From Porticoccaceae bacterium (lineage in GTDB: Bacteria; Pseudomonadota; Gammaproteobacteria; Pseudomonadales; Porticoccaceae), in the NCBI GenBank assembly GCA_024644595.1, contig JAHEHL010000002.1, forward strand, positions 15,741-79,740: DNA of 64,000 bases, in the 5' to 3' direction. Made by a program: the position numbers and the translations under genes. How positions within the stretch are numbered: the stretch's first letter is position 1; each line of letters starts with the position of its first letter. The notes below the pieces were generated by a model, which did no database searches, had not been told where the DNA came from, and saw only the letters and a program-made list of their open reading frames with translations. Of the stretch, positions 9,638 to 44,996 are shown in pieces.

Positions 9638-11071
9638 TTACCCGCCGACAGGCTGTTCGGCGACAGTCGAGCCAAAGCCGTGGTAGTCAGCGATGGCCAG
9701 ACCCGCAGCCACACTGGTGAACGGATCATGCTCAACCACCTTTCCAGGGAACTGATTGTCGAGAATATCTTTCACCGCAGGAATTAATGAAGAGCCGCCG
9801 GTACGTAGCACCAGATCGATATCGCCCGCCACGACGCCCGCTTTATCGAGAATAAGGGTAATCGCCTGTTCCAGCTCAAACAACAGATCGGAGATCATCA
9901 GCTCGAACTCCCAGCGCTCGAGTGTGACTTCAATGTCGATCTCCGGAATATCTAACACTGCGTAATCGGCAACCGAAAGCTCGGCTTTAAAGACTTTGAT
10001 CGCCTCAAACACCTGGTAGCTGTAATTCTGTTTAATCAGATCATAGAGTCGGCGGAATTTGATCGAGCCCTCATCGGCCTCTTCCATGCGCAGCATCACA
10101 GGAGCGGTGTATTTGTTCTGATTGAGCATATAACTGATCGGCCAATTGATCAGCAGCTCTTCAAAATCGGCAAACGGAAAGAGCGTATCAACCTCGGATC
10201 CATCGACAGTCCGCCGCCAGCGCTCTCCTTTGCCTAGCAGTGGAAACACTAGCTCGCGAAAAATACACTGATCAATCTTGTCACCACCCAACGCAATGCC
10301 ATGGGTGGCCACCACGTTAAAGTCACTGCCTTCACGGCGCAGAATACAAAAATCCAGAGTGCCGCCACCGAAATCAACGGTCAACATCAGCTGGTCACGG
10401 CTGTGGGGATGGTTGTACAGATAACTAATCGCCGCTGCAGTGGGCTCCGGACAGAACGTTTGCTCGACAATGCCGGCATGACGATAGGATTCACTCAGCC
10501 TCTCCAGGGCGACATTATTGCGCCCCTGCTCCAGCCCCTCAAAGTTGACCGGATGACCAATACAGGCATGACTGCTGTCAGCAACACTCAGCTGCAACGC
10601 TTTGCGAATGCCAACTAAAATCGGCGTAACCAATGCCACCAGGCGAAAGGGGCGCGAAAAAATAACCGTTTTATCGCTGGCAGTATTACCCAGCAAACGC
10701 TTGGTGCCGCGAAACAGTCGCCCCGGCAGCCCGGCATCATTAAATGCCTGGCCGAAAACCTTGCTGGTCTCGGATTCACTGGCAGGTCCATCTGCCGTAC
10801 CGGCAGAGGTTCGCGCCTCACCGATCAACTCGGCACTGAGCTCGACCTTGCGGCCCTGATTATCACTGATGTAATCGTCGATAGCAGGCTGGCCGATAGT
10901 CGAGAAAAAATCCCGATCAATATAATTGGCCGACGGCATAATCGGATTGAGCTGGCTCAACTGAACCAGCTTCACGCGTTCACCATCAAAAACCGCAGCG
11001 GCACTGTTACTGGTGCCAAAGTCGATACCAATGCCGTGTTTGAGTGGCAAATCAGAGCTGTTTTTTTGCAT
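9638..11071 (-). CDS. Hsp70-family ATPase (YegD-like, non-canonical DnaK paralogue)
   Basis: 477-aa ORF with actin/Hsp70 ATPase motifs GIDFGTSNSAAAV, DFGGGTLDF and LRTGGSSLIPAV. Too short to carry a full DnaK substrate-binding domain with lid. Confidence 0.8.
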   Translation of the reverse strand: MQKNSSDLPLKHGIGIDFGTSNSAAAVFDGERVKLVQLSQLNPIMPSANYIDRDFFSTIGQPAIDDYISDNQGRKVELSAELIGEARTSAGTADGPASESETSKVFGQAFNDAGLPGRLFRGTKRLLGNTASDKTVIFSRPFRLVALVTPILVGIRKALQLSVADSSHACIGHPVNFEGLEQGRNNVALERLSESYRHAGIVEQTFCPEPTAAAISYLYNHPHSRDQLMLTVDFGGGTLDFCILRREGSDFNVVATHGIALGGDKIDQCIFRELVFPLLGKGERWRRTVDGSEVDTLFPFADFEELLINWPISYMLNQNKYTAPVMLRMEEADEGSIKFRRLYDLIKQNYSYQVFEAIKVFKAELSVADYAVLDIPEIDIEVTLERWEFELMISDLLFELEQAITLILDKAGVVAGDIDLVLRTGGSSLIPAVKDILDNQFPGKVVEHDPFTSVAAGLAIADYHGFGSTVAEQPVGG

Positions 11072-11254
11072 GAAAGAAGATCACAGAAAGACCAAAGATA
11101 GGCCTATTTTAGCCTAATTGAGTCGCCTAGATTAGCGATAATTACATTGATTTAGCCCGCAATCGAGAAAAATATCACCCCCACAAAAGAACCAAAAGCC
11201 TGTAAACTTAGAAAAAATTCTGGTCCATAAAAACAATAACCACAGGGATCCTCC

Positions 11255-12526
11255 ATGCTCCGCTCAATTGCCCCAGGTGCTCTACAGCAGCGCCACAAAC
11301 TCGTCATGCTCTCAATGGTGGCCGTATTTATTTGCTATATCGACCGCATCGCCATGTCTGTCACTATTATTCCCATGGCCGAACAATACGGCTGGGGCCC
11401 CGAGACACAGGGACGCGTATTGTCATCATTTTTTGTCGGCTATCTGCTGCTGCAAATCCTTGGTGGCACCCTGTCAGATCGTTTTGGCGGCAAAGTCGTG
11501 CTCGGTGTTGGCGTCTTGCTGTGGTCACTGTTTACTGTGTTGACTCCCCTTGCGGCGTCGTTTGGGCTGGCCATACTGATTCTCAACCGGATATTCATGG
11601 GCATGGGCGAAGCCGTTACCTACCCCTCAATTTACAGCCTGCTGGCACGCTGGGTGCCGCAATCCGAGCGCGCTCGAGCAATGGGTGCCATTAATAGCGG
11701 CATTCCGCTGGGCACCGTAGTTGCATTGGTTATCACACCGCTTATTGTTCAAGCCTATGGATGGGAAATGGTGTTTTACAGTTATGGCTTACTTGGCGTG
11801 CTGTGGTTTGTATTCTGGCAATCGACCTCCTCCGAGCCTAGCACTCATCCGCACATCAGCCCTGAAGAATTGGCCCACATTCAAGCAGAAGGCGAACCCA
11901 GCAAAGCCGAGACCGCACCGCCGATACTGCAGCTGTTAAAAAGCCCCGCCGTATTAGCCATCATGGTCGCGCACTTCTGCAATAACTGGTCGCTATTTCT
12001 ACTGCTGACCTGGCTGCCGACCTTTATTAACAAAGGGCTGGGCGTGGATTACGCCTCAGTCGGTTACTTCACCATGGTGCCATTTATTATCTCGGTGCTG
12101 TTCTACAATATCTCCGGCAATATCGCCGACCGCATGATTAAGGGCGGTATGGCTGTAGTTAAAGTGCGCAAAATCATGCAGTCCGTCAGCCTCGGCGGTA
12201 TGGCCGCAACCATGATGGTGGTGGGGTACGCCGAAAGCGTGTGGGTCGCCATCGGGATTATGACCCTCGGCAATATTCTCGGCTCCGCAGCCATCGGCGG
12301 ATTTGTGGTCAACCATATGGATATTGCACCCAAATATGCCGGCACGCTGATGGGCATTACCAACACCATGGCCGCGATCCCGGGCATTATTGGTGTCTAT
12401 GCCGCAGGCTACATTCTCGAAGCAACCGGTTCATGGGTCATGGTGTTCCAGCTAGCCGGTGCGGTATCGTTGTTTGGCATGCTGTTTTATCTGATATTTG
12501 CCAGTGCTGACAAGCAGTTTGATTAG
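11255..12526 (+). CDS. MFS transporter, anion:cation symporter (ACS)-like
   Basis: 423-aa ORF with about 12 hydrophobic segments. GGTLSDRFGGK loop between TM2 and TM3. Confidence 0.8.
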   Translation: MLRSIAPGALQQRHKLVMLSMVAVFICYIDRIAMSVTIIPMAEQYGWGPETQGRVLSSFFVGYLLLQILGGTLSDRFGGKVVLGVGVLLWSLFTVLTPLAASFGLAILILNRIFMGMGEAVTYPSIYSLLARWVPQSERARAMGAINSGIPLGTVVALVITPLIVQAYGWEMVFYSYGLLGVLWFVFWQSTSSEPSTHPHISPEELAHIQAEGEPSKAETAPPILQLLKSPAVLAIMVAHFCNNWSLFLLLTWLPTFINKGLGVDYASVGYFTMVPFIISVLFYNISGNIADRMIKGGMAVVKVRKIMQSVSLGGMAATMMVVGYAESVWVAIGIMTLGNILGSAAIGGFVVNHMDIAPKYAGTLMGITNTMAAIPGIIGVYAAGYILEATGSWVMVFQLAGAVSLFGMLFYLIFASADKQFD

Positions 12527-33133: not shown

Positions 33134-33403
33134 TTATCGACGTAAACCAAGCTTCTTGATTAGCGTGGTATAACGCTGCATGTCTTTGCTCTTTAAGTAA
33201 TCGAGCAACTTGCGACGTTGGTTTACCATGCGAATCAGGCCGCGACGTGAATGATGATCTTTTTTGTGATCGCCAAAGTGGCCCTGGAGCTTGTTGATGT
33301 TTACGGTTAACAGTGCAACCTGTACTTCAGGGGAACCAGTGTCATTTTCACCAGTTCCGTGTTCAGCAACGATTACAGCTTTTTCTTCAGCACTTAATGC
33401 CAT
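33134..33403 (-). CDS. rpsO: 30S ribosomal protein S15
   Basis: ORF 33134..33418 trimmed to [16 protein letters not shown]..., giving 89 aa. Highly conserved sequence ([30 protein letters not shown]). Confidence 0.95.
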
Positions 33404-33528
33404 TTTCTTACTCTCCAATATGCGATTAAAGGAATTCAGGTCTGTCCGCGCATATTTACAGACAACCTAGTGAGCAAACCTGAGACACTTTGGTTTCAGA
33501 ACCGCTCGAAATTTGGGTCTTGCGGTGA

Positions 33529-40777: not shown

Positions 40778-43168
40778 TTAGCCTGAGCGAACGGGCAAGT
40801 AAACAGATGGCTTTTGTTTGGGGGAGGTTTTTCGTTTGCACAACCGCAGTAGCCCGAACAACGCTAACAGCGCCAACGAGCTATCCGGAGATTTGCCATC
40901 ACCTATTGTGCAACCGCCACCTGAGGAGGGCTTGTCGGCGGGGGGAACAGCAGCTGGCGATGTAGTTTGGCCTCTGGTGGCCATTGTTGGCGGCTCGGAG
41001 GTTGTCTCGGAGAGCATCACCGCTATGCCGCTGGGGTCTGTCACAGTGCCGTCAGCGCGCCCATCAAGATCATCGGGGCCGCCGTCTTCTATATGGATCT
41101 CAAGACAGTTATCACCTGGTGTGAGGCCCCTGCTATAAAGCGCACTGCCGGGTTCGGGACAGGCGCCTTTGACCGCTTTGGCCGAGGCAACCCAGTTGTA
41201 GGCGTTGACAATGAAATTCTGCCAGCCAATATTGGTGTCTACGCAGGTCCGATAAACTGCCTGTTGCGGGATCGCCTCTGCTAAGGGAATTATGACGTCA
41301 TAGGATGAACCCGACTGCTTGCCCGTGACAGAAAAATCAAATAGACCGCTAGAGTATTGATAAGTCTGGTCCGGATCACAGACCAGGTTTTCAGTTTGCT
41401 CTTCCGTTAACGCAACGCTGTTGTTACCCATTTCAAACGTCGCTTCTCCAAGCTGAATTTCGGTGCCGACCTCTGTCTGCAAGAAAACATTGCCAGTTGG
41501 GGTAACCTCCGACAGGTAACGATCCTCACGATTATTCAGGTTGTCTAAGTAGTCAGGTATGCCGTCATCATCGGCATCGCCAAAGCCCTCTTCGACATCA
41601 ACAATACCGTCGCCGTCCGAGTCATCGTTAACAGCTAAGACCGGAGCTGACGGTAGCACTTCAAGTACAATTTTTTGCATTGTCGAAAGCATGGGGCTGC
41701 CGTTATCGCGGACACTCGCGCTGATGATTATTCCTTTAGCAGTGATCTGGGCGGGATCAAGGGCAAAGGTATTTTTGGTTATTTTCACAATCGGCAAGTC
41801 ATGGATCTCTGGAGCCCATTCAAACCAATGGCTGTCTTCGAGATTAAGATCGCTATAGCGAGCCTTAACACGGATCAAACCCCCGTCAGCCGTCACCAGC
41901 CTACCCTGACGCCCGTCCTGTTCAACAGTTAATGTCAGGGTGGGCGCAATATTCTCTTCAGTAATCGTTACTGTGCCTTCAGACGTTACACCGAGTACAG
42001 CATTTTCCGGCTCACCCAGACGGATCACAATGGTCTCATCAGGCTCGACCCACCTATCCCGCTCAATAGTCAGGCTAGCCTTACCGACTGTGCCCTGCTC
42101 AATCACCACCTGCAGGTCCGATAAGCTGAAGTCTTCTGCGTCGGCTGAACCTTCAATGATAAGCGGAATGGTTACCGGATATGCCGGGGCTTTACCGCTG
42201 AGAATAACGGTCACCTCATGCACCGTACCCTCTGTAACGATAACTGAAGGGGTTAGCTCAGCCAGCGGCAATATACGCAGATGTTGTATCTGACTCGCCG
42301 TATTGCCGGCTGCATCTGCTACAGACCACAGGATTTCATGGAGCCCGGATACGAATGGGCCTACGCTATTTGCCGACGGCAGCAGGTCAATGCCACTGTC
42401 ATCCGTCGCGGTGGCTTGACCAATATCCACAGCGGTTAAATGGCCAGTCGCCGCAACAGTTACATCCTGCGGGATTACTAACTCGGGTGGCAGCTCATCG
42501 AGAGTTGGATCGGAGCCCACTATGTACTCGTCAATATTAGATGCTCCGTCACCATCAAGATCAGACTCAGCGTCTGTCGGGTCATTGGGGTTAAGCCCAT
42601 GCTCGATCTCGTAGCTGTCGGGTAGTCCATCCCCATCACTGTCCACAGGCGCTGCTAGTCGCTCTGGCGCCAACTCCAAGACTGCACTCTGAGCTTCAAG
42701 ACTGTATCCATAGGGTAAAGAGGAGGCAGTAAAATTCACTTGGGTGCCGCTAAAACCACTCAAGGTGGTAAACGGCAGCACAGCTAATTGCGCTGGCATA
42801 CCGGTTTGTTGAGGCCATCCTGCACCCGCCAGGTCGGCCCAGGCAATTAGCAGATATTTATCGGTAGAGGGTTCGGCATCGTAGTCCTCTAAATCATTTT
42901 GCAGCTGAAAACCCTGCAGCTCCGCAGGCAATAACTGTTGCGGATCACCAGCGGTTAAGTCGGCGCTGTTAAAATGGATGCGCAATCCGAGACCTGGGAG
43001 CAAACGGTTTCCCGTTACACTATACGACAGTGTGAGATTTGCAGGCTGGTCGCTGGATAGACTAGAAGGAGAAAATAACCCAGTAACAGATTGTATTTGC
43101 CCAACAGCAGCTCCGGCATAGCCAGCACAGCTTAGAATCAAACCAAACACAACAACGAATCGAGTCAT
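40778..43168 (-). CDS. Large secreted multidomain surface protein with a Cys-containing C-terminal sorting-signal-like tail
   Basis: ORF 40778..43234, with the likely start at MTRFVVVFGLILSCAGYAGAAVG (signal peptide). Residue numbers below count from the ORF start at 43234. Read by eye: a cohesin-like beta domain (about aa 45-189); Asp-rich Ca-binding TSP3-like repeats (DSDGDGLPD, DLDGDGASN, DDSDGDGIVD, DADDDGIPD); an HYR-like module (about 250-323); a Calx-beta-like module (about 325-425); a C-terminal beta domain ending IEDGGPDDLDGRADGTVTDPSGIA; a Pro/Thr linker; and then SSGGGCTIGDGKSPDSSLALLALFGLLRLCKRK plus a 16-aa tail. Confidence 0.75.
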   Translation of the reverse strand: MTRFVVVFGLILSCAGYAGAAVGQIQSVTGLFSPSSLSSDQPANLTLSYSVTGNRLLPGLGLRIHFNSADLTAGDPQQLLPAELQGFQLQNDLEDYDAEPSTDKYLLIAWADLAGAGWPQQTGMPAQLAVLPFTTLSGFSGTQVNFTASSLPYGYSLEAQSAVLELAPERLAAPVDSDGDGLPDSYEIEHGLNPNDPTDAESDLDGDGASNIDEYIVGSDPTLDELPPELVIPQDVTVAATGHLTAVDIGQATATDDSGIDLLPSANSVGPFVSGLHEILWSVADAAGNTASQIQHLRILPLAELTPSVIVTEGTVHEVTVILSGKAPAYPVTIPLIIEGSADAEDFSLSDLQVVIEQGTVGKASLTIERDRWVEPDETIVIRLGEPENAVLGVTSEGTVTITEENIAPTLTLTVEQDGRQGRLVTADGGLIRVKARYSDLNLEDSHWFEWAPEIHDLPIVKITKNTFALDPAQITAKGIIISASVRDNGSPMLSTMQKIVLEVLPSAPVLAVNDDSDGDGIVDVEEGFGDADDDGIPDYLDNLNNREDRYLSEVTPTGNVFLQTEVGTEIQLGEATFEMGNNSVALTEEQTENLVCDPDQTYQYSSGLFDFSVTGKQSGSSYDVIIPLAEAIPQQAVYRTCVDTNIGWQNFIVNAYNWVASAKAVKGACPEPGSALYSRGLTPGDNCLEIHIEDGGPDDLDGRADGTVTDPSGIAVMLSETTSEPPTMATRGQTTSPAAVPPADKPSSGGGCTIGDGKSPDSSLALLALFGLLRLCKRKTSPKQKPSVYLPVRSG

Positions 43169-43323
43169 ACCATGTTCCATACGATAGATTTCCGTTGTTC
43201 CTATGACACTACAGTCTGATATAAAATTCAACAATGAATAATTATTTTTTTAATTAACCGTTAAAAAAGTCCCACAGTGTTATTTTTTTTAATCTCTAAT
43301 ACCAAAATGATAGTAGAAATATT

Positions 43324-43740
43324 ATGCGACGATTTTATTTTGATCCTATTTTTATAGGCTTATTTCTATCTCCTATTCCATTTTGGATGATTTTAAATAA
43401 TCACCCTTTTAACTTTAATGAAGACTTGCTTCTAACGTTGCTAACGGTGAGTGCTCTGTACCCTGTTGTTGAGGAAATTATTTTCAGGGGCACTATTCAA
43501 CAGTGGCTGGGGAGAAAATTTTGTGGCAGCCTGCTTAGACTCTCCACCGCAAATATCCTGACAAGCCTTCTTTTTACGCTTAGCCACCTGATTAATCATT
43601 CGCCCTACTGGGCGCTTTCGACTTTTATTCCCTCTTTAATTTTCGGTTTTGTAATGGATCGCTACAAAATCATCGCGGCGCCGATCATTCTTCATAGCAC
43701 TTATAACCTCGGCTATTTTCTTTCTTTTGGTATAAATTAA
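43324..43740 (+). CDS. Minimal CPBP family (CAAX/Abi-type) glutamic intramembrane endopeptidase
   Basis: 138-aa ORF with all three CPBP motifs: EEIIFRG (EExxxR), FTLSHL (FxxxH) and HSTYN (HxxxN). Four to five hydrophobic segments. The gene is strongly AT-rich and divergent from the 818-aa protein gene. Confidence 0.85.
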   Translation: MRRFYFDPIFIGLFLSPIPFWMILNNHPFNFNEDLLLTLLTVSALYPVVEEIIFRGTIQQWLGRKFCGSLLRLSTANILTSLLFTLSHLINHSPYWALSTFIPSLIFGFVMDRYKIIAAPIILHSTYNLGYFLSFGIN

Positions 43741-43754
43741 AAATCTATTTTTAA

Positions 43755-43780
43755 AATTACACTTGTATATAAGTGTAATT
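43755..43780. promoter_or_regulatory. Perfect 10-bp inverted repeat (26-bp palindromic site) between the CPBP and collagen-like genes
   Basis: AATTACACTT-GTATAT-AAGTGTAATT, 15 nt after the CPBP stop and about 125 nt before the collagen-like gene start. It could be an operator or an AT-rich terminator stem. Confidence 0.45.
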
Positions 43781-43862
43781 GCTATATCGATAAAGCTATT
43801 TGATCTAAAAACGACTATACATAAATAAATAATATTGTTAATTTGAAAACCGGTATTCATTT

Positions 43863-44996
43863 ATGGATATGTTCGTCTCACGGACTGAATGGAGGTTTAT
43901 CGCTGTGTTTAAAACTAGTTTCAGCAATAGTGCTGCGCATCGATTAGTTGTTCGATCGTCTTTTTTTATTTTTCTCATTGCCTGCCTGACAGCGCCACAA
44001 CAAGGCTTAACTCAAGCTAATGTTCAGCGCCCAGACGGTATCGCGATCTTAGATATTGATGCCTCTGGCAGCGTCGATGCATTCACTGATGGACTCTTAA
44101 TTCTGCGCTCGCTAATCGGTTTTAGTGACGCTGCTTTGACCCAGGATATATCTGACAACTGTGGCCAGTGTGACCCTGAGACCATTACTAATTACATTAC
44201 TCAATTAAGCACTCAATCAGTTGTCACAGCCGGTGTAAGTCAAGGAGAAGCTGGACCCCAAGGTGAACCTGGACCCCAAGGTGAACCTGGACCCAAAGGC
44301 GAACCTGGACCCAAAGGCGAACCTGGACCCAAAGGCGAACCTGGACCCAAAGGTGAAACCGGACCCAAAGGTGAAACCGGACCCAAAGGTGAAACCGGAC
44401 CCAAAGGTGAAACCGGACCCAAAGGTGAAACCGGACCTAAAGGTAAAACCGGACCTAAAGGCGAAACTGGCGCTACAGGCTTAACTGGCCCACAGGGTTC
44501 CTCTGGGTTAGCGGGTCCCGTCGGCCCCAAGGGAGAAACCGGACCCAAAGGCGAAACTGGCGCCACAGGCTTAACTGGTCCACAGGGTCTCACCGGATTA
44601 GCAGGTCCCGTTGGACCTCAAGGGGAAACCGGAGCCAAAGGTGAAACTGGGGCATCTGGCGAAGCTGGCCCCCGCGGACTTACAGGACCTGCAGGTAATG
44701 CCTATGCAGGAACTTGGTCGGGGTCGAATAGCTATATTGAAGGCCAAATGGTGCTGCATAATCATTTGCCTTACTGGGCACTTAGCGACAACAACTCTGT
44801 GGAACCAGGATCTGAGATCTCAAATTGTGCCAACTGGGACTCAGCTATTGATCTTAACTGGATAGGACTGGGGGGTGTTCCTTCAAGCAGCTGTGTTTGG
44901 AACGGTGGCACCAAGGCTAATTTCAGAGGTGATGATGAAACGGCATTTACTGCTTATGGTGCGCCTAACGCCGTCTTCGATATGGTTGAAGGTTAA
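43863..44996 (+). CDS. Collagen-like triple-helix repeat protein with an N-terminal dockerin/EF-hand-like motif
   Basis: 377-aa ORF. A better start is probably the GTG at 43905 (GGAGG 9 nt upstream), giving the signal-like N-terminus [38 protein letters not shown]. It then has [24 protein letters not shown], 51 uninterrupted Gly-X-Y triplets (aa 128-280), and a CBM5/12-like [22 protein letters not shown] segment. It ends at an in-frame TAA (44994-44996). Confidence 0.8.
44244..44702 (+). repeat. Tandem 9/18-bp coding repeats (Gly-X-Y)51
   Basis: Near-identical 18-bp units GGTGAACCTGGACCCAAA / GGTGAAACCGGACCCAAA encode GEPGPQ x2, GEPGPK x4, GETGPK x5 and GKTGPK. They are followed by a duplicated block of about 90 bp ([13 protein letters not shown](S/L)(S/T)GLAGPVGP(K/Q)). 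Confidence 0.95.

Follow-up and report, generated by a model that had tools for sequence, protein, structure and literature searches.

Two divergent genes in a 64 kb window (the whole stretch of DNA analysed here) raise the question of whether a large secreted protein and the small intramembrane protease encoded beside it form a dedicated enzyme and substrate pair for protein sorting, and if so, of which kind. The preliminary description had read the pair from two open-reading frames, 40778..43234 on the reverse strand (818 aa) and 43324..43740 on the forward strand (138 aa), both of which agree with the ORF list, and had proposed a sorting cassette, possibly of a variant class. We refer to the large protein as the client and to the protease as MrtJ. 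Features are collected in Table 1; tail residues follow the numbering of the 818 aa frame, whilst those of the modelled tail helix follow M23 numbering.

Table 1. Coordinates of the features of the client and mrtJ locus within the window
Feature	Position	Strand	Basis
Client gene, secreted adhesin-like cadherin/Ig-repeat protein with C-terminal JDVT-CTERM-type sorting signal	40778..43180	-	ORF and gene calls of relatives
Predicted N-terminal Sec-type signal peptide (MTRFVVVFGLILSCAGYAGA/A)	43106..43168	-	sequence reading and modelled helix, residues 2-15
Choice-of-anchor U domain, ORF aa 623-739	41018..41368	-	NF041766
Pro/Thr-rich disordered linker ahead of the sorting signal	40928..41014	-	sequence reading and model
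JDVT-CTERM-type tripartite sorting signal: SSGGGC (Cys775), spacer carrying the +9 Asp, helix rich in Leu, RLCKRK	40829..40927	-	NF033191
SSGGGC, ORF aa 770-775	40910-40927	-	sequence
Spacer TIGDGKSPDSS	40877-40909	-	sequence
LALLALFGLL	40847-40876	-	sequence
RLCKRK basic cluster	40829-40846	-	sequence
16-residue extension TSPKQKPSVYLPVRSG beyond the basic cluster, predicted cytoplasmic, non-conserved	40781..40828	-	sequence
AT-rich divergent intergenic region, presumed site of both promoters	43169..43323		composition
mrtJ, 138 aa glutamic-type CPBP intramembrane protease, JDVT-CTERM system	43324..43740	+	NF033192
Gene for a protein with collagen-like repeats, downstream of mrtJ	43905..44996	+	Pfam Collagen, 91.9 bits

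The client and its surroundings

The 818 aa frame of the client is the maximal one and opens on a TTG at 43234, an unlikely start. In six near-identical contigs from metagenomes, gene callers instead open an 800 aa protein at ATG 43180; either this ATG or the one at 43168 (796 aa) is probably the true start, the latter being implied by the spacing of 155 bp given in the preliminary description. Orthologues of the client have equivalent hydrophobic N-termini, with SSAQ at the end and no conserved Cys. A lipobox (LILSC) in the signal peptide was considered and set aside as unlikely, as the orthologues lack that Cys.

The AlphaFold model of the client (pLDDT 83.6) holds a chain of beta-sandwich domains, for which the top Foldseek matches are protocadherin EC1-4 and the Ig-like domains of PrgB. 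TSP3 repeats were also found, and the choice-of-anchor U domain scores 51.7 bits on its model (cutoff 32). The cadherin/Ig-like repeats together with the calcium-binding TSP3 repeats suggest a role in adhesion at the cell surface. The linker ahead of the tail is modelled with pLDDT <50 (model residues 723-761), and the tail helix at residues 764-780. Remoter homologues of the client passenger carry Cys-less, GlyGly-CTERM-like tails in place of the Cys tail.

Between the two genes lie the 155 bp of the spacer, described beforehand as a very AT-rich divergent promoter region. The AT-richness stands (26.5% GC vs. 52.6% for the window), whilst the divergent promoter is a presumed one: a scan of the spacer for promoter and terminator consensus sequences returned nothing, including no sigma-70-like promoter. 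Alignment of the spacer with loci L007 and L008, along with a repeat search, showed poor conservation and no conserved operator, and an Rfam search gave nothing beyond two tRNAs and an S15 leader. Downstream of mrtJ, the collagen-like gene has a GGAGG ribosome-binding site ahead of its GTG at 43905, and its place next to mrtJ is conserved in the closest relatives (L001-L006, L008 and L009); in the window it is shortened by a nonsense change. More speculatively, this collagen-like lipoprotein may dock onto the anchored adhesin via a dockerin-like N-terminal module. A cohesin-like N-terminal beta-sandwich of the adhesin that would bind this module was considered; Pfam gave no cohesin or dockerin match, and in a Foldseek search with the whole adhesin, cadherin and Ig matches dominate.

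The protease and the C-terminal signal

All three CPBP motifs claimed for the 138 aa protein are present, EEIIFRG, FTLSHL and HSTYN (EExxxR, FxxxH and HxxxN), and across 33 homologues the catalytic residues are conserved, with E50, E51, R55, H88 and N128 invariant and H124 nearly so. Compared with the CPBP subfamily models, the protein passes NF033192, the MrtJ equivalog (95.9 bits, cutoff 75, E 1.8e-27), whilst the next-best models, Mrt_core (61.8 bits), MrtP (60.3 bits) and MrtS (54.4 bits, cutoff 130), and also MrtX (41.9 bits, cutoff 180), remain under their own cutoffs; the general family PF02517 scores 69.7 bits. The AlphaFold model (pLDDT 92.6) has five helices, one N-terminal helix and a four-helix CPBP core, with the catalytic motifs in helices 33-65, 75-90 and 118-135. 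Foldseek of this model against the PDB found nothing below E=2, and a profile search of PDB sequences found no match at E<=10, so the likeness of MrtJ to MmRce1 is one drawn from Pfam and NCBIfam. The low GC of mrtJ might point to a recent horizontal transfer, but since synteny of the gene is kept throughout the family, this was deemed unlikely.

A Cys-tailed client with a dedicated CPBP protease next to it is the arrangement of the JDVT-CTERM/MrtJ system, which the preliminary description had named, a two-gene system described in silico by Haft 2023 from gene neighbourhoods and phylogenetic profiles (bioRxiv 10.1101/2023.06.07.544157). The pair is not a new class. The tripartite, Cys-containing tail is present after its Pro/Thr-rich linker as described, and amongst the sorting-signal models its best match, and the only significant family, is JDVT-CTERM NF033191 (cutoff 27), which gives 25.6 bits when the full protein is searched and 30.5 bits for its last 61 aa. 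The tails of nine relatives (orthologues, 1300 aa paralogues and L016) score 10.8-39.6 bits on the same model. MYXO-CTERM TIGR03901 (cutoff 20) is not reached, with 14.9 bits for the full client and 19.8 bits for the tail, and the PEP-CTERM (TIGR02595) and GlyGly-CTERM models give no match to the tail at E<=1, nor is there a P-E-P motif; the suggestion of a variant class, based on a helix that resembles PEP-CTERM, is not supported.

The tail has the JDVT layout, in which a Gly/Ser-rich signature with a Cys comes first and a helix rich in Leu and a basic cluster come after it, and this Cys is kept in every orthologue and 1300 aa paralogue with a complete C-terminus. Asp784 lies at +9 from Cys775, where the JDVT signal has its Asp; across the 56 distinct tails collected here the Asp is at +9 in 29, a further 24 have it within +8 to +13, and the script placed none in the remaining 3. 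The published hallmark of a "nearly invariant DP" (bioRxiv 10.1101/2023.06.07.544157) is missing, as the client reads P-D-S-S with a Ser where the Pro is usual; Pro directly follows the Asp in just 9 of the 56 tails. Tails of the Porticoccaceae clade read D-[SGLI]-S-L, and the D-x-S-L form of the client is common to the Porticoccaceae/SAR92 orthologues; SPDSS is the JDVT Asp with lineage-specific neighbours. A second Cys, C799, within RLCKRK departs from the single Cys of JDVT signals and is not conserved amongst client orthologues. The extension TSPKQKPSVYLPVRSG lies outside the HMM match, is disordered in the model and is unconserved in orthologues. It had been singled out as atypical; extensions after the cluster range from 0-16 residues, with one 37-residue case that may stem from a different stop, and have a median of about 3; the client's is the second longest of 55 measured, and its closest orthologue (P0075) has 12. 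The extension thus seems long yet not different in kind from those of other JDVT-CTERM tails. The client tail is a lineage-specific variant of JDVT-CTERM. The full-length score below the cutoff, the missing Pro, the second Cys and the long extension were entered in our assessment against assigning the locus to JDVT-CTERM/MrtJ.

Linkage of client and protease across loci

A tail HMM built here was applied to 7814 ORF tails from the window and 86 loci. It matched 29 of them, each with an MrtJ gene no more than 2.5 kb away and none elsewhere, and the pairing of client and mrtJ therefore exceeds chance. There is a single match in the 64 kb window, and it is for the window alone that the proposal of one enzyme for one substrate holds. 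The same divergent pair is retained in L007, L008 and L009, which are the closest relatives; in the 21 linked loci as a whole, client and mrtJ are co-directional in 13. In a rough NJ tree the tail sub-type follows the MrtJ clade, and in L064 two clients and mrtJ are found within a gspDEF...GHJKL operon.

Adjacency is nonetheless not general. CPBP homologues do not always sit beside such a tail: 21 of 80 MrtJ loci have a client tail within 2.5 kb, and just 9 of 38 fully flanked loci have a client nearby, as against strict adjacency in 16 of 17 in the original JDVT survey (bioRxiv 10.1101/2023.06.07.544157), and strict adjacency thus fails across metagenome-derived MrtJ loci. In the SAR92/Porticoccaceae loci L010-L019, mrtJ occupies a shared djlA...secG position with no tail-bearing gene within 10 kb, and these orphan MrtJ proteins score 92-118 bits on NF033192 (one such locus, L018, belongs to the complete SAR92 genome CP179212.1); MrtJ at this position without an adjacent client is a new detail of the system. 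Homologous 1300 aa clients are found 2.6 kb from mrtJ (L087) or with no CPBP gene within 10 kb (L090). These observations lead us to a tentative suggestion, which we hold to be possible rather than probable, of a Porticoccaceae/SAR92 sub-type of JDVT in which the D-x-S-L tail often falls below the HMM cutoff and mrtJ is fixed at djlA...secG, with the client adjacent, nearby or unlinked. If true, MrtJ would not be strictly part of a two-gene cassette and might serve unlinked or several clients. The infrequent adjacency in fully flanked loci, the lack of a PDB match for MrtJ and the absence of T2SS genes from the window were also counted against the assignment of the locus.

Loci with mrtJ alone, the strong NF033192 scores of their MrtJ, and 1300 aa clients 2.6 kb from mrtJ or with no CPBP gene within 10 kb are also what would be seen if MrtJ were a housekeeping protease of the whole lineage that acts on other substrates or on several, with the adhesin as one client or as a mere neighbour with a plain helix anchor. 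However, the Cys signature is kept by all clients of the clade at any position, such tails occur only near mrtJ in the sampled loci, and the orphans are equally explained by unlinked clients elsewhere in those genomes; we consider this reading rather unlikely. It is far less probable still that the CPBP protein is unrelated and that a different sorting enzyme, with its gene outside this locus (rhombosortase/GlyGly-CTERM or exosortase/PEP-CTERM), handles the tail. The Cys-less tails of distant passenger homologues would fit such an enzyme, as would a very weak PEP-CTERM match of one 1300 aa paralogue tail (11 bits, E 0.65), but the client tail lacks any match to either model, its Cys is invariant in orthologues, and neither an exosortase-like Pfam domain nor a rhomboid-family gene is found among the annotated genes of the window and matching contigs. 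Similarly little credence is given to the 138 aa protein taking no part in sorting, whether as an Abi or bacteriocin-immunity-type protein or as a CAAX-like protease of generic type: PF02517 does span many such proteins, and MrtJ has 20092 relatives at E<=0.001, yet the specific MrtJ cutoff is passed, the other CPBP subfamily models score far lower with none at cutoff, and no bacteriocin genes are near mrtJ.

A proposed sorting route and its relatives

Taken together, the locus most probably represents the JDVT-CTERM/MrtJ protein-sorting system as it occurs in a marine gammaproteobacterium that is Porticoccaceae-like. The N-terminal signal peptide would direct the adhesin-like client into Sec export, judging from sequence, and the C-terminal helix is predicted to keep the client in the inner membrane with RLCKRK and the 16-residue tail in the cytoplasm, which would place Cys775 at the periplasmic face, 21 residues ahead of the first Arg. 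By analogy with Rce1, and with the hypothesis for MYXO-CTERM, the Cys is probably lipidated, and the EExxxR/FxxxH/HxxxN site of MrtJ would, as for its family, cut in the membrane just C-terminal of the Cys, removing the helix and tail. Experimental cleavage comes from the related MrtX/MYXO-CTERM pair only, in which MrtX, acting on TraA, cuts MYXO-CTERM in a Cys-dependent manner, E. coli included, and is required for surface display (PMC11980579); in the literature we found no experiment on any MrtJ and no processing demonstrated for MrtJ itself.

The window pair extends JDVT-CTERM/MrtJ to a marine Porticoccaceae lineage, which is of little import beyond annotation, and the published DP hallmark and the 27 bit cutoff miss some tails of this lineage. 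As a compact natural enzyme and client pair, it would be a handy model in which to test whether the Cys is lipidated, where cleavage falls and whether the T2SS is needed, though many such pairs exist.

Compared with the described JDVT-CTERM/MrtJ system (NF033191, NF033192), the window shares a small MrtJ beside a single large secreted protein, a gammaproteobacterial host and a tail in which a Gly-rich Cys signature precedes the +9 Asp, a helix rich in Leu and a basic cluster; it differs in the Ser for the near-invariant Pro, the second Cys, the 16-residue extension, a full-length score just below cutoff and the divergent orientation of its genes, and in its clade mrtJ is the fixed syntenic gene whilst the position of the client varies. 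MYXO-CTERM/MrtX (PMC11980579) resembles the pair in its homologous CPBP core, in a tripartite tail whose Cys is essential and in a proposed route from Sec through lipidation and intramembrane cleavage to the T2SS, whereas the 239 aa MrtX carries additional N-terminal helices, has dozens of unlinked clients and belongs to Myxococcota. The type II CAAX prenyl proteases Rce1/MmRce1 share PF02517, the catalytic motifs and a cut just past a lipid-modified Cys near the C-terminus, whereas Rce1 is an eight-helix enzyme whose substrates are cytosolic prenylated CAAX proteins, from which it removes just three residues. GlyGly-CTERM/rhombosortase, apparently used by distant homologues of the client passenger, likewise has a tripartite signal at the C-terminus of surface proteins that depend on the T2SS in marine gammaproteobacteria, but its enzyme is a serine rhomboid-type protease and its signature has no Cys. 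Synerg-CTERM/MrtS pairs a small myxosortase-family CPBP protein with a Cys-containing tail and has a T2SS-operon link in the literature, in a different phylum and with a shorter tail that has an invariant Pro.

MrtJ, its probable client and the sorting tail

Both open-reading frames of the preliminary description are present at their coordinates, although the larger one (here the client) probably does not begin at the TTG assigned to it: on six metagenome contigs that are nearly identical, gene callers chose the ATG at 43180 (800 aa), and the reported 155-bp spacing itself implies the ATG at 43168. The small protein belongs to the MrtJ family. It carries all three reported CPBP motifs (EEIIFRG, FTLSHL and HSTYN) and scored 95.9 bits against the NCBIfam equivalog NF033192 "JDVT-CTERM system glutamic-type intramembrane protease MrtJ" (cutoff 75), the remaining CPBP/myxosortase models scoring lower and each under its own cutoff, with a further 69.7 bits against Pfam PF02517 (Rce1-like). 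E50, E51, R55, H88 and N128 were invariant in 33 homologues and H124 nearly so, and the predicted structure (pLDDT 92.6) consists of one N-terminal helix and a four-helix CPBP core. Neither a fold search nor a profile search returned a significant PDB match for MrtJ, so its link to MmRce1 comes only from the curated HMMs. The large MrtJ-like family comprises, at 50% identity, 279 clusters at E ≤ 1e-30 and 1431 at E ≤ 1e-10, mostly of 125-200 aa.

Domain searches of the client recovered a choice-of-anchor U domain at 51.7 bits (cutoff 32) along with calcium-binding repeats of the TSP3 type. Its AlphaFold model, built on 32 homologues (mean pLDDT 83.6; residues counted from ATG 43168), places a signal helix and a beta-sandwich at the N-terminus, followed by a TSP3 linker and three Ig/cadherin-like domains; after the anchor-U domain come a disordered Pro/Thr linker (723-761), one helix (764-780) and a disordered end. 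The top PDB matches of this model were protocadherin EC1-4 and the PrgB Ig-like adhesin, which identifies the client, on its modelled fold, as an adhesin-like surface protein.

Features of the mrtJ-client locus and neighbouring sequence
Feature	Position (nt)	Strand	Remark
Client	40778..43234	-	818 aa from TTG
SSGGGC	40910-40927	-	tail; aa 770-775, counted from TTG
TIGDGKSPDSS	40877-40909	-	tail, after SSGGGC
LALLALFGLL	40847-40876	-	tail
RLCKRK	40829-40846	-	tail
TSPKQKPSVYLPVRSG	40781-40828	-	tail end, after RLCKRK
Client-mrtJ spacer	43169-43323		26.5% GC
mrtJ	43324..43740	+	138 aa
AT-rich palindrome	43755-43780		26 bp, AATTACACTTGTA/TATAAGTGTAATT, 12/13 positions complementary, no spacer
Collagen-like gene	43905..44996	+	ends at TAA (44994-44996)
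Start of collagen-like protein	43905-44240		lipobox-like signal FFIFLIAC, then dockerin/EF-hand-like module
Collagen units	44242-44696		18 nt each
Ribosomal S15 leader	33347-33469	-	upstream of rpsO; Rfam RF00114, 65.9 bits

JDVT-CTERM tails have a Cys signature with a single Cys, a nearly invariant Asp-Pro nine residues past it, a Leu-rich helix and an Arg cluster (Haft, bioRxiv 10.1101/2023.06.07.544157). The client tail matched the corresponding model, NF033191, at 25.6 bits within the whole protein and 30.5 bits as the last 61 residues alone (cutoff 27), MYXO-CTERM stayed under its cutoff of 20 (14.9 and 19.8 bits), and PEP-CTERM and GlyGly-CTERM models gave zero matches at E ≤ 1. The proposal of a variant class, made because the helix looked PEP-CTERM-like, is unsupported; SPDSS is the Asp-at-+9 position of the family with clade-specific neighbours. 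The 16 residues beyond the basic cluster, previously called atypical, are long yet of the same kind (median ~3 across tails, 12 in the closest orthologue), are not conserved in sequence and are predicted to be cytoplasmic. The client has two kinds of homologue, orthologues of 763-794 aa and a family of ~1300 aa whose members bear HYR, Big_1 and cadherin-like domains; the complete C-termini in both groups all close with GGGC-T-[VI]-x(5-10)-D-x-S-L-(Leu-rich)-RRR. When NF033191 was applied to ten relatives' tails, nine from the clade of the window scored 10.8-39.6 bits, so the curated model captures this clade only in part; a canonical DP tail scored 23.5 bits. Of 56 distinct tails, 29 have the Asp at +9 and a further 24 have it between +8 and +13, the script placing none in three, and Pro follows it in only nine. 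Distant passenger homologues (P0118-P0132, P0143, P0147) end in Cys-less GG...hydrophobic...RRR tails of GlyGly-CTERM appearance, for example GGGGEFDP in P0121; judged by these sequences, one type of passenger seems to go with more than one sorting signal, as the "choice-of-anchor" label implies.

Linkage of enzyme and client among relatives

The source organism is absent from the GTDB species representatives. In that set the nearest MrtJ proteins (57-59% identity) were in three uncultured Pseudomonadales/Porticoccaceae MAGs (loci L007-L009), followed by SAR92-clade MAGs (47-54%), with NusA identities of 91% and 86-87% to the same groups and client identity of ~50%; enzyme and client thus evolve much faster than housekeeping genes. 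The pairing is kept in these nearest relatives: L007, L008 and L009 all have djlA, then the client on the minus strand and mrtJ divergently on the plus strand, and the collagen-like gene follows mrtJ in L008 and L009, the L007 contig stopping ~1 kb beyond mrtJ. The client orthologue in L009 (5826-7910) is broken into two ORFs of 268 and 385 aa, a sign of a frameshift/pseudogene or of misassembly; metagenomes also contain an intact form of 774 aa (P0084).

In the loci sampled, such tails are restricted to MrtJ neighbourhoods. A tail HMM, seeded by pattern-searching every ORF of these loci and refined by iteration, matched 29 of 7814 ORF tails, every one ≤2.5 kb from an MrtJ gene and none outside these neighbourhoods. 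A client lay next to MrtJ in 21 of 80 loci (13 co-directional with the client upstream, eight divergent, including the clade of the window) and was present in nine of the 38 where MrtJ has 4 kb or more of sequence on each side; ten MrtJ genes lacking a client all scored above the NF033192 cutoff (92-118 bits). One client homologue (L087) is 2.6 kb from a 135-aa MrtJ, whilst another (L090) has no CPBP within 10 kb, so enzyme and tail persist in the client family as their linkage varies. A rough NJ tree of MrtJ cores, without support values, gave a DM/DF clade and a Porticoccaceae D-x-SL clade, most of the remaining enzymes going with DP tails, a grouping by tail type that fits possible enzyme-signal co-evolution.

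Ten SAR92/Porticoccaceae loci (L010-L019) carry a genuine mrtJ (92-118 bits on NF033192; ~10001-10411) between djlA and secG-tpiA-glmM, as in the window, with no JDVT-type tail-bearing gene within 10 kb of it; the neighbours vary, being TetR plus P450 or FAD oxidase genes.

Composition and neighbouring genes

The intergenic region, earlier described as an AT-rich divergent promoter, is AT-rich compared with the window (52.6% GC); a consensus scan of this spacer found no sigma-70-type promoter, so the promoter is putative. Across 43169-43904 both spacers flanking mrtJ have ~26.5% GC and mrtJ itself 38.8% (GC3 0.40). It is GC-poor relative to its own locus in L007-L009 too, not in SAR92 loci, and GC3 of the collagen-like gene is likewise low (0.37). 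The palindrome, 15 bp past the mrtJ stop and ahead of the collagen-like gene, may serve as an operator or form a weak hairpin.

Where the collagen-like gene ends at TAA, all six of the near-identical copies from metagenomes (L001-L006) carry TCA (Ser) and read 112 further residues, and the window frame stays open to ~45333; the stop reflects either one C->A nonsense substitution at 44995 or an error in sequencing. The number of collagen units varies among these copies (~10582-12039, proteins of 455-487 aa) and looks like repeat-length polymorphism within the population; another contig (L092) stops inside the gene. The dockerin/EF-hand-like module recurs at the end of unrelated proteins (P0145, P0174 and L009 10711..11748), and a putative cohesin/dockerin-type link to the adhesin is possible. 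Otherwise the window is made up of housekeeping genes (truB-rbfA-infB-nusA-rimP, tRNA-Met, djlA, tRNA-Leu, secG-tpiA-glmM-folP-ftsH, his and lpt genes, rpoN and others), and its S15 leader is ordinary.

Alternatives, mechanism and known systems

The preliminary description rightly proposed a dedicated enzyme-client pair, which by its NF033192 equivalog and NF033191 tail matches is the very JDVT-CTERM/MrtJ system it had named. Reading the 138-aa CPBP as an Abi-type protein with no relation to sorting is contradicted by that equivalog match, and cleavage of the tail by a rhombosortase or exosortase encoded elsewhere lacks HMM support and has against it the invariance of the tail Cys. MrtJ may also be an enzyme found throughout the lineage, whose clients are unlinked or several, with the adhesin only one among them; this is backed by the orphan loci and is compatible with the dedicated pair. 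In one locus (L064, 5874-10282 plus flanks), mrtJ and a tandem pair of JDVT-CTERM clients (572 and 627 aa) are inserted between gspD-gspE-gspF and gspG-gspH-gspJ-gspK-gspL. This goes against a single client per enzyme in that genome, ties the JDVT system to an operon for type II secretion and gives genomic support for a T2SS step.

Our literature search found no experimental paper on MrtJ itself. For its paralogue MrtX, Guo, Haft and Wall (PMC11980579) report cleavage of the MYXO-CTERM tail of TraA, which requires the tail Cys residues; surface display needs MrtX, which also works in E. coli, and they propose that Sec export is followed by Cys lipidation, through an enzyme yet to be identified, then by cleavage within the membrane on the distal side of the Cys and finally by T2SS transport. 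By analogy with the family (MrtX, Rce1 and MmRce1 experiments cited in PMC11980579), the client would take up an inner-membrane topology, its Cys would be lipidated before cleavage, MrtJ would cut just after Cys775, and T2SS export would be coupled with surface anchoring.

The pair belongs to the already known JDVT-CTERM/MrtJ system, whose enzyme Haft found through neighbourhood and partial phylogenetic profiling and renamed MrtJ, with typically one JDVT-CTERM protein per genome and the CPBP gene adjacent in 16 of 17 cases (bioRxiv 10.1101/2023.06.07.544157). To this our analysis makes modest additions: a low overall adjacency rate in metagenome-derived loci, an mrtJ that keeps its syntenic position and a client that does not, and, in this clade, a D-x-S-L form of tail that is missed in part by the DP hallmark and the model cutoff.
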